A stretch of DNA of 64,000 bases, from the NCBI RefSeq assembly GCF_030013205.1, contig NZ_CP122648.1; one strand, written 5' to 3'. The stretch's first letter is position 1, and the number at the start of each line of letters is the position of its first letter. Source of the DNA: Escherichia coli (GTDB taxonomy: Bacteria; Pseudomonadota; Gammaproteobacteria; Enterobacterales; Enterobacteriaceae). Shown piece after piece: positions 25,401 to 28,400 of this stretch. Made by a program: the position numbers.

Positions 25401-28400
25401 TACTCTGATGTTGCCGGTTGAAGTGCGTATCTTCCCGACGGTGGAAGTCATCGCCAACCTGAAGATGCTCGACAGCTACGCCGGTTTAACGCTGCCGCTG
25501 ATGGCCTCGGCGACCGCCACGTTTCTTTTCCGCCAGTTCTTTATGACGCTGCCGGATGAGCTGGTGGAAGCGGCGCGGATCGACGGTGCGTCACCAATGC
25601 GCTTCTTTTGCGACATCGTTTTTCCGCTCTCCAAAACTAATCTGGCGGCGCTGTTTGTGATCACCTTTATTTACGGCTGGAACCAGTATTTGTGGCCGTT
25701 GTTGATTATTACCGACGTGGATCTCGGCACCACCGTGGCAGGGATTAAAGGGATGATCGCCACAGGCGAAGGCACAACGGAATGGAACTCGGTGATGGCG
25801 GCGATGTTGTTAACCCTGATCCCACCAGTAGTGATTGTTTTAGTGATGCAGCGTGCCTTCGTGCGCGGCCTGGTCGATAGTGAGAAATAAGATGGCAGGA
25901 CTGAAATTACAGGCAGTAACCAAAAGCTGGGATGGCAAAACCCAGGTCATTAAACCGCTGACCCTTGATGTGGCGGATGGCGAATTTATCGTGATGGTCG
26001 GGCCGTCTGGCTGCGGGAAATCGACGTTATTGCGAATGGTGGCCGGACTGGAGCGGGTAACGACGGGCGATATCTGGATCGACCGCAAGCGTGTCACCGA
26101 AATGGAGCCGAAAGATCGCGGGATTGCGATGGTGTTCCAGAACTACGCGCTCTATCCGCATATGAGCGTAGAGGAGAACATGGCGTGGGGGCTGAAAATT
26201 CGCGGCATGGGCAAGCAACAAATTGCCGAACGTGTTAAAGAAGCGGCGCGCATTCTGGAGCTGGACGGCCTGCTTAAGCGCCGCCCGCGTGAGCTATCTG
26301 GCGGTCAGCGTCAGCGTGTGGCGATGGGGCGTGCGATTGTGCGTGAGCCGGCAGTGTTCCTGTTTGATGAGCCGCTCTCTAACCTCGATGCCAAGTTGCG
26401 CGTACAGATGCGTCTTGAACTGCAACAGCTGCACCGTCGCCTGAAAACGACTTCACTCTACGTTACTCACGATCAGGTTGAGGCGATGACGCTCGCCCAG
26501 CGAGTAATGGTGATGAACGGCGGCGTTGCCGAACAGATTGGCACGCCAGTTGAAGTCTACGAAAAGCCCGCCAGCCTGTTTGTGGCGAGTTTTATTGGCA
26601 GTCCGGCGATGAATCTGCTGACAGGCCGCGTGAATAATGAAGGCACGCATTTTGAACTGGACGGCGGTATCGTGCTACCGCTAAACGGTGGCTACCGTCA
26701 GTATGCCGGGCGTAAAATGACTCTCGGCATTCGCCCGGAACATATTGCGCTAAGCTCGCAGGCAGAAGGCGGCGTACCGCTGGTGATGGACACGCTGGAG
26801 ATCCTCGGCGCAGATAACCTGGCGCACGGACGCTGGGGCGAACAGAAGCTGGTGGTGCGACTGGCGCATCAGGAGCGCCCGACGGCAGGCAGCACGCTGT
26901 GGCTGCATCTGCCGGAAAATCAGCTGCATCTTTTTGATGGTGAAACAGGACAACGAGTATGAGTAACTGGCCTTATCCCCGCATCGTCGCTCATCGTGGC
27001 GGCGGTAAGCTGGCCCCGGAGAACACCCTGGCAGCAATCGACGTCGGGGCAAAATACGGTCATAAGATGATCGAATTTGACGCGAAGTTATCGAAAGATG
27101 GCGAGATCTTCCTGCTCCATGACGACAATCTTGAACGCACCAGCAACGGCTGGGGCGTCGCGGGCGATCTGAACTGGCAGGATTTACTGCGCGTGGATGC
27201 AGGCAGTTGGTACAGCAAAGCGTTTAAAGGTGAGCCGCTACCGTTGCTTTCGCAGGTGGCGGAACGCTGTCGCGAACACGGGATGATGGCGAATATCGAA
27301 ATCAAACCCACCACTGGCACCGGGCCATTAACGGGCAAAATGGTGGCGCTGGCGGCACGCGAACTGTGGGCCGGAATGACGCCGCCGCTGCTGTCATCGT
27401 TTGAGATTGATGCTTTAGAAGCCGCGCAACAAGCAGTACCAGAACTGCCGCGCGGTTTATTGCTTGATGAGTGGCGCGACGACTGGCGAGAACTGACCGC
27501 GCGGCTGGGCTGCGTCTCTATTCATCTCAATCATAAGTTGCTCGATAAAGCGCGAGTGATGCAGTTGAAAGACGCCGGATTACGGATTCTGGTTTATACC
27601 GTCAATAAACCCCAGCGCGCGGCAGAGTTGCTGCGCTGGGGCGTGGATTGCATCTGTACCGATGCGATTGATGTGATTGGTCCGAACTTTACGGCCCAAT
27701 AGTTTTCAACGGTATATCAGGCTGCGGCGTGCCGGGCTGATTCAGCATGTCGCCGTTTCTCCTCTCCGGCAACATATGCTGCTGATTCAACGAACTATCC
27801 GGATTACGGTTGCTGTTTAACATCCCGCCATTGGTGTTGGGCAGCATTTGCTGCCGGGCGGGATTTCGCTCCCCCGGCTGTGACTGCAACACCCGCTGAG
27901 AATTATTGTTTATCTGGTTTTCTAAATGCTGTTGTTGCAGCTGCGTTTGCGTTTTCAGTTGCTGATTCAGCATCCCTTTTTGCTGGATTTGCTGCGTTTG
28001 CATTTGGGTTTGCATCCGCTGCTGGCTGGGGATCTGATATCCCGGCTGGTTGGGGTTGTTCAGAGTATTAATGGGCTGTGCAAAGCCGACAAACGGCAGG
28101 AGTGCCGTAAGAATCAGAAGTCGTTTCATCGCGTATCCTCCTCTGAAGATATCCTTTAAGTTTACTCGCTTCCCGGCAAAACGATGATTAATTCAGAGTT
28201 ATATACCAGGCTTAGCTGGGGTTGCCCCTTAATCTCTGGAGAATAACGATGATAAAACCGACGTTTTTACGCCGGGTGGCCATTGCTGCTCTGCTCTCAG
28301 GAAGTTGTTTTAGCGCCGCCGCCGCGCCTCCTCCGCCACCTGTTTCTTATGGCGTGGAGGAAGATGTCTTCCATCCGGTACGCGCGAAACAGGGGATGGT

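Follow-up and report, generated by a model that had tools for sequence, protein, structure and literature searches.

We analysed yhhA, a small gene of Escherichia coli lying between ugpQ and ggt, in a stretch of 64,000 nucleotides (hereafter the window; NCBI RefSeq assembly GCF_030013205.1, contig NZ_CP122648.1). A preliminary description made from the sequence alone had placed this gene at positions 27689-28129, had presented it as coding for a secreted, Gln-rich protein of 146 residues and unknown function, and had noted that its 3' end overlaps the stop region of the convergent ugpQ gene. An open reading frame (ORF) running from ATG to TAA on the minus strand matches these coordinates and this length. 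The annotated gene order is ugpA-ugpE-ugpC-ugpQ (plus strand), yhhA (minus strand) and ggt (plus strand), with a spacer of 119 bp common to ggt and yhhA. The convergent overlap is present as described: the ugpQ TAG ends at 27702 and the yhhA TAA at 27689, so that 14 nt are common to both coding sequences (CDS). The features of the locus are:

27689-28129, minus strand: yhhA CDS, ATG-to-TAA ORF of 146 codons plus stop, DUF2756 family (ORF list, Pfam, NCBIfam and RefSeq)
26959-27702, plus strand: ugpQ, glycerophosphodiester phosphodiesterase gene that ends the ugpBAECQ operon, convergent neighbour of yhhA (ORF and annotation)
28249-29991, plus strand: ggt, gamma-glutamyltransferase, divergent neighbour of yhhA (annotation and sequence)
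27689-27702: convergent yhhA-ugpQ CDS overlap of 14 nt (ORF coordinates and RefSeq annotation)

The name given to the frame agrees with three sources. Residues 1-105 of YhhA align with positions 1-105 of the 105 of Pfam DUF2756 (PF10956; E 1.1e-60, 202.9 bits for a gathering threshold of 21), residues 1-146 align with positions 1-145 of the 145 of the NCBIfam equivalog PRK10350 (NF007675; 264.6 bits for a cut-off of 136), and RefSeq labels the identical sequence 'yhhA: DUF2756 family protein'. The 801 bp around the gene are 100% identical to E. coli strain 7/2, and this 801-bp query found the locus in 5424 of the 5426 complete E. coli genomes, every time on the chromosome. Compared with the K-12-type protein (b3448), YhhA differs by one residue (G133 versus S133), and the full-length hidden Markov model match and the position between ugpQ and ggt are the same, without any essential difference. 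Judged by these matches, the ORF is the already catalogued and annotated core-genome gene yhhA, a member of DUF2756. This family has no assigned function, in line with what had been stated for the protein, and membership therefore leaves the mechanism unexplained. Two plus-strand ORFs antisense to yhhA (27880-28071 and 27926-28159) were rejected as unsupported, being Leu/Ala-rich mirror images of the CAG/CAA-rich frame. An Rfam search over 27000-28600 at E ≤1 gave as its sole match a meaningless Brucella small RNA (18.6 bits for a threshold of 270).

yhhA is genuinely protein-coding and is subject to strong purifying selection. Comparison of four E. coli strains revealed 6-18 synonymous versus 0-1 nonsynonymous differences, giving a ratio of nonsynonymous to synonymous substitution rates (dN/dS) of 0.00-0.03. 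The ratio is 0.06-0.08 against E. albertii and ~0.08 against Salmonella, for which the synonymous rate (dS) is saturated. The 3' part of ugpQ displays similarly high synonymous divergence (dS 0.09-0.27) with more amino-acid change, and YhhA is thus the better conserved of the two within the species. The conservation of the repeat number across strains had been suggested as a check. In a length census of 60 genomes sampled evenly from the 5424, the yhhA match is exactly 441 nt in 59, and the length is fixed in nearly all E. coli; 19 records lie at 90-95% identity. The same sample contains a single case of deletion, E. coli A16 (an otter isolate; L008), in which the loss of a segment corresponding to window positions ~27583-27922 takes the 3' ends of ugpQ and yhhA, both annotated as pseudogenes. 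A large protein database contains rare alleles with lengths of 96 to 165 amino acids, each owing to an in-frame insertion or deletion that falls within the Gln-rich middle; among these alleles, residues 1-37 and 117-146 are essentially invariant. The doubt raised at the outset, that the frame might not be conserved or not be expressed, is answered by the low dN/dS, the fixed length, and the protein and transcript reported in the literature (see below). As a separate observation, E. coli strains diverge strongly at synonymous sites in the ugpQ-yhhA-ggt region (27200-28600; dS 0.07-0.27), and the 5' end and signal region of ggt varies in length between strains, ggt being 1734, 1743 or 1746 nt long.

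The composition of the protein is as unusual as had been claimed. Mature YhhA (129 residues) contains 22.5% Gln and 14.0% Asn (36% together), 10.9% Pro and 5.4% Met, has a grand average of hydropathy of -1.40, and is devoid of Cys, Trp and Phe, with a single Tyr. Its densest 80-residue window (residues 21-100) holds 36 Gln or Asn (Q/N), the highest count among the 230 segments of the 64 kb that run from stop to stop over 80 or more amino acids; the median of these segments is 8, the 95th percentile 15 and the runner-up 25, which places YhhA far beyond chance. This composition is found across the family. Among 26 DUF2756 members, Gln and Asn make up 32-49% in 25, the exception being P0174 at 27%, and the best 80-residue Q/N count is 27-39 in 25 and 21 in the remaining one; Cys and Trp are absent and aromatic residues almost so. 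The persistence of 32-49% Gln and Asn in 25 of the 26 aligned members indicates that the composition is maintained by selection. The preliminary description had also spoken of Q/N/T-rich repeats. The Gln-rich low complexity stands, and the 11-residue stretch quoted as an example lies at residues 40-50; true tandem repeats are minimal. Tandem Repeats Finder reported as the sole array within yhhA one of 9 nt x 2.6, and the direct repeats given by a repeat finder are short (11-17 nt) and scattered, such as GCTGATTCAGCAT at 27736 and 27961, each coding for MLNQ. At the protein level, a motif of about 15 residues, QQxMLPxxxNGxMLN, is duplicated in the tail (residues 93-105 and 116-130). yhhA is a low-complexity gene, not a tandem-repeat gene. 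Next after YhhA in Gln/Asn density within the window (25 per 80 amino acids) comes a stop-free stretch of 872 amino acids at 51248-53863 on the plus strand, which maps between glpD and glgP; the presumably corresponding stretch of strain 7/2 is annotated as a hypothetical protein and two pseudogenes with internal stops, one of the PstS family.

The anatomy of YhhA, read from the sequence, from the 26-member alignment and from AlphaFold2 models with their predicted local distance difference test (pLDDT) scores, is as follows:

28079-28129, minus strand: signal peptide, residues 1-17, cleavage predicted before Q18 (n-, h- and c-regions read by eye)
28031-28078, minus strand: mature N-terminus, residues 18-33, conserved and non-helical (pLDDT ~55, no secondary structure)
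27884-28030, minus strand: long Gln-rich helix, residues 34-82, conserved DUF2756 core (AlphaFold2 and conservation)
27692-27883, minus strand: disordered Asn/Pro/Met-rich C-terminal tail, residues 83-146 (pLDDT 49-59, no secondary structure)
27815-27853, minus strand: tail motif copy 1, residues 93-105 (sequence)
27740-27784, minus strand: tail motif copy 2, residues 116-130 (sequence)

The signal peptide announced for the protein was read as a typical Sec-type leader made of MKR, a 13-residue core and A|QP, with A17, Q18 and P19 conserved across the 26 family members and the lipobox Cys absent. Residues 18-33 are invariant in E. coli alleles and mostly kept between genera. AlphaFold2 predicted a helix at residues 35-82 when given YhhA alone (pLDDT up to 96) and at residues 34-82 when given the 26-sequence alignment (pLDDT 77-88), the remainder of the protein being modelled as coil (pLDDT 49-60). 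The conserved core of DUF2756 consists of the leader, NPSQQRMQxxM, the Gln-rich stretch and QQxLQxQ(I/M). In the helix, M43 is invariant among the 26 members, R38, Q46, Q47, Q50, L69 and Q72 are nearly so, and conserved hydrophobic residues occupy positions 39/43, 54/58, 69/73 and 80, that is, pairs four residues apart recurring every ~15 residues. All that can be claimed for the modelled helix is a narrow Leu/Met/Ile stripe on a very polar surface. The tail terminates in a conserved PLKTIGP, and the E. coli and E. albertii alleles all agree at residues Q117, H118, M119, L120, N125, G126, D127, M128 and L129 of motif copy 2. A search of the Protein Data Bank with the YhhA sequence gave no match, and with the family profile only LytS (E 0.46).

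The family is small and narrowly distributed. When 1.84 billion representative proteins were scanned exhaustively with HMMER, only 64 clusters emerged at E ≤0.001, and the named DUF2756 sources are all Enterobacteriaceae (Escherichia, Salmonella, Citrobacter, Enterobacter, Yokenella, Buttiauxella, Kosakonia, Phytobacter and Dryocola). The position of yhhA, convergent to ugpQ and divergent from ggt, is also found in E. albertii, Salmonella, Buttiauxella and locus L002. Tail length and content differ between genera, and distant homologs of 87-103 amino acids are without the tail. The number of tail motif copies varies too, with two in E. coli, one in E. albertii, in which a 24-residue deletion removes copy 1, and one extra copy in a Kosakonia homolog.

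Some distant homologs lie in other surroundings. At L013:5001-5264 (JGI contig Ga0157361_1000017), an 87-residue DUF2756 homolog (P0168, 47% identity) is encoded between capsid/portal and terminase genes and looks like a phage- or prophage-borne accessory gene. A Rz-like spanin was considered for P0168 and rejected, since the PHROG matches are weak (E 4e-4) and probably come from the common leader and coiled-coil composition; its Pfam Metal_resist match is sub-threshold (20 bits for a cut-off of 29.2). PHROGs contains no significant family for YhhA itself. In locus L003 (L003:4680-5750 and L003:1-291), ggt and the yhhA homolog are separated by inserted genes for a CesT-type chaperone and an AvrPphF/HopF-type effector, and an OspG-kinase-like gene is found past ggt. 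An intact yhhA homolog is present in the region L014:3005-6420 (GCA_033977085.1) with no adjacent ggt or full ugpQ called and an insertion sequence transposase nearby; this genome looks to be degrading yet retains yhhA. Finally, a 106-residue DUF2756 homolog in the region L015:313-3499 is convergent not to ugp genes but to an mlaFEDC-like operon (ABC_tran, MlaE, MlaD, MlaC).

On the other side of the locus, just past ggt (window ~31250-32430; NZ_CP023820.1 3865824-3867493), lies a gene for an extended Hcp1-family type VI secretion system protein of 392 residues (tssD, K-12 yhhZ), followed by yrhA, a yrhD fragment and yrhB, an arrangement that resembles a Hcp-toxin and immunity type island. The wording 'yhhZ/yhhA operon' in PMC12428005 was not retained for yhhA, as it is probably a misprint for yhhZ/yrhA.

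The expression of yhhA was considered from the upstream sequence and from published data sets. Three elements were identified upstream of the ATG:

28137-28142, minus strand: Shine-Dalgarno sequence AGGAGG, 7 nt upstream of the yhhA ATG (sequence)
28156-28164, minus strand: candidate -10 element TAAACT followed by TAA (TAAACTTAA), sigma-S-like (conservation and an RpoS peak from systematic evolution of ligands by exponential enrichment, SELEX)
28205-28214: 10-nt block TAAGCCTGGT (minus-strand reading) in the ggt-yhhA spacer, conserved in five of six aligned genera

The GGAG core of the Shine-Dalgarno sequence is conserved in six genera, and TAAACT is invariant in all six aligned genera, including the homologs of 41-47% identity. 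We infer that TAAACTTAA may act as a sigma-S-type -10 element of yhhA; a simple sigma-70 consensus scan upstream of the gene yielded no site. The TAAGCCTGGT block could be a ggt promoter or leader, or a regulator site. Genomic SELEX with the RpoS holoenzyme gave one peak in the ggt/yhhA spacer, assigned to both directions (PMC5493296), and yhhA was listed among the RpoS-regulon genes induced by cold downshift in O157 Sakai (PMC4057180). Its transcript increased 2.5-fold as O157 cells left exponential growth (PMC2241611) and 5.6- to 9.9-fold upon treatment with a LolCDE inhibitor, together with elaB, ytfK, raiA and colanic-acid genes (PMC5105897). It was also up-regulated in data sets of antibiotic, oxidative, cold, heat and nitrosative stress (PMC9501238). 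Mass spectrometry studies have reported the protein from both E. coli (PMC9731836, PMC9927464) and Salmonella (PMC4265081); yhhA is not mentioned in the Salmonella RpoS proteome paper and its supplements. A sigma-28 (FliA) holoenzyme SELEX peak was also reported inside ugpQ, at window ~27188 (PMC5493296), and our search for a sigma-28 promoter within ugpQ on both strands returned nothing convincing.

We tentatively propose that YhhA is a non-enzymatic periplasmic protectant or holdase acting at times of stress. This possibility fits the data best because it accommodates the leader, the disorder and polar helix, the extreme hydrophilicity, the RpoS and stress induction, and the purifying selection. 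After export and cleavage, YhhA would remain in the periplasm in soluble form, a highly hydrophilic and mostly disordered polymer. The Leu/Met/Ile stripe of its helix could allow self-association or weak binding of exposed hydrophobic patches, and the Met-Leu motifs of the flexible tail would add low-affinity, promiscuous contacts, YhhA thus behaving like a hydrophilin or a disordered chaperone and not like an enzyme. Hydrophilins such as E. coli YciG and YjbJ are, like YhhA, small, very hydrophilic, largely disordered and induced by RpoS or stress. However, classical E. coli hydrophilins are cytoplasmic and rich in Gly and charged residues, whereas YhhA bears a predicted Sec leader, is rich in Gln and Asn, and has no sequence relationship with them.

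Several points weigh against this proposal. The periplasmic location is a prediction drawn only from the leader. No experiment or homology ties YhhA to a chaperone or protectant activity, and no yhhA deletion phenotype was found in the searchable literature. The hydrophobic stripe of the helix is sparse, and the strongest Fourier peak of helix hydropathy is at a period of 2.1, the peak at 3.75 residues per turn being secondary. With 6.2% Gly and a hydrophilicity index of 1.05 (1.40 for the mature form), E. coli YhhA lies narrowly within the hydrophilin thresholds, reportedly those of Garay-Arroyo et al. 2000 (Gly above 6% and hydrophilicity index above 1). This does not hold consistently across the family, which ranges over 2-10% Gly and an index of 0.3-1.44; PMC5437024 confirms only the kind of criteria used for hydrophilins. 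Homology to the periplasmic chaperones CpxP, Spy and ZraP (LTXXQ/Metal_resist clan) was considered and rejected. The hhalign probability was 0.43% for ZraP, 0.15% for CpxP and 0.13% for Spy, each target being a single sequence, which limits sensitivity; YhhA has no Pfam match to the clan, and its mature sequence contains no LTxxQ motif. These proteins resemble YhhA, given its predicted location and structure, in being small, stress-induced, helical and periplasmic with disordered ends. In contrast, they form a helical hairpin or cradle and are controlled by Cpx, Bae or Zra, while YhhA has a single predicted helix and is linked to RpoS.

A rather unlikely alternative, compatible with a protein function, is that the role of the locus is mainly transcriptional, as in an excludon, the yhhA and ugp transcripts interfering via RNA polymerase collision or RNase III cleavage of the duplex. 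General-stress expression of yhhA would in this case be coupled to the phosphate-starvation expression of ugpBAECQ. With 14 nt of CDS overlap, there is no room for an intergenic terminator and the convergent transcripts must therefore overlap. A terminator scan near both gene ends on either strand found two weak sites, no more than shuffled sequences give, neither of them convincing. Moreover, the MG1655 excludome includes yhhA-ugpQ as one of 165 convergent excludons that appear in 50% or more of 58 transcriptomes (PMC12288877). However, selection acts strongly on the protein (dN/dS 0.00-0.08), its composition is kept as well, and the arrangement itself is not general. The overlap measures 14 nt in both E. 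coli and E. albertii but 4 nt in Salmonella, and it is replaced by a gap of 91 nt in Buttiauxella, ~700 nt in L002, 92 nt in L003 and 35 nt in L012, so that Buttiauxella and more distant homologs keep yhhA 35-700 nt away from ugpQ, and the L015 homolog faces the mla-like operon instead. The overlap is thus specific to a lineage. From this distribution, it arose recently, when the Escherichia/Salmonella lineage gained the long C-terminal tail, and is not a property of the family. It is best seen as a by-product of tail extension, with antisense interference with ugp possible, and not as the reason for the existence of yhhA. Compared with other convergent E. coli excludons, the pair is alike in its MG1655 listing and in its overlapping CDS ends and unlike in that the overlap is absent from most yhhA-bearing genera. 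Mutual exclusion is putative for yhhA-ugpQ, and an excludon role is at most an added layer in Escherichia and Salmonella.

Other explanations concern the protein itself. YhhA could self-assemble, either through its Gln-rich helix as a coiled coil, possibly right-handed, or through its Q/N-rich mature sequence as amyloid-like or condensate assemblies. Its 36 Q/N residues in 80 exceed the Michelitsch-Weissman threshold, said to be at least 30 in 80 consecutive residues, the helix is long and confidently predicted, and both the hydrophobic pairs recurring every 15 residues and the secondary periodicity of 3.75 residues per turn are what such an assembly could use. Still, a regular core would call for a period of 3.5 residues in heptads or 3.67-3.75 in right-handed forms; the helix supplies about two hydrophobic residues in every 15, very few for a stable coiled coil, no good heptad register exists (the best one has hydrophobic residues at 5 of 14 a/d positions), and the 11% Pro and the charged residues of the tail disfavour amyloid, so that we hold self-assembly to be unlikely. 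A particular form of it is improbable, namely that YhhA is a prion-like or condensate-forming protein whose Q/N composition and helix would drive a reversible periplasmic gel in stationary or stressed Enterobacteriaceae; if true, this would be a protective material state not previously described for the bacterial periplasm. YhhA shares with Q/N-rich prion-like and coiled-coil domains of the Michelitsch-Weissman type its 36 Q/N per 80 residues and its Gln-rich helix, and departs from prion-like domains in being bacterial and (by prediction) periplasmic with a Pro-rich tail. It is decidedly improbable that YhhA works in partnership with either the periplasmic gamma-glutamyltransferase (GGT) or the Ugp glycerophosphodiester system, serving for instance as a Gln-rich substrate, a reservoir or a helper. 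Indeed, the ugpQ/yhhA/ggt order is kept from E. coli to the homologs of 41-47% identity, and the one RpoS SELEX peak of the 119-bp spacer is attributed to both directions, but vertical descent alone predicts such synteny among related Enterobacterales. Furthermore, other genes separate yhhA from ggt in L003, L014 retains yhhA with no adjacent ggt or ugpQ called, homologs also occur in a phage-like block (L013) and beside an mla-like operon (L015), and GGT acts on gamma-glutamyl bonds, not on the Gln of a peptide chain. Finally, a preprint (bioRxiv 10.1101/364117) relays the proposal that YhhA is a type III effector of EPEC mimicking ATM-kinase substrates through S/TQ and QS/T motifs, of which YhhA has 7 and 4, respectively. 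That YhhA is such an effector is very unlikely indeed, because the gene is universal in E. coli, including K-12 and B, and occurs in commensal and environmental Enterobacteriaceae, because its leader, predicted to be of the classical cleavable Sec type, would route it to the periplasm, and because S/TQ sites are expected by chance at 22% Gln.

The protectant or holdase proposal set out above is thus the reading that we tentatively retain. The novelties brought by this analysis are incremental: the domain anatomy of YhhA, its tail motif with copy-number variation, the lineage-specific origin of the overlap, the -10-like element and the phage-borne homolog. The ugpQ overlap adds only a documented case of unavoidable convergent transcription, and no long-standing question is made testable by the finding. 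yhhA is a member of the E. coli 'y-ome', being conserved, expressed and stress-regulated with no function assigned. Its product is by far the most Gln/Asn-rich ORF of the window, is predicted to be exported, and has a composition selected across the Enterobacteriaceae. For these reasons, YhhA would be a tractable test case for disordered polar proteins in the ATP-free periplasm.

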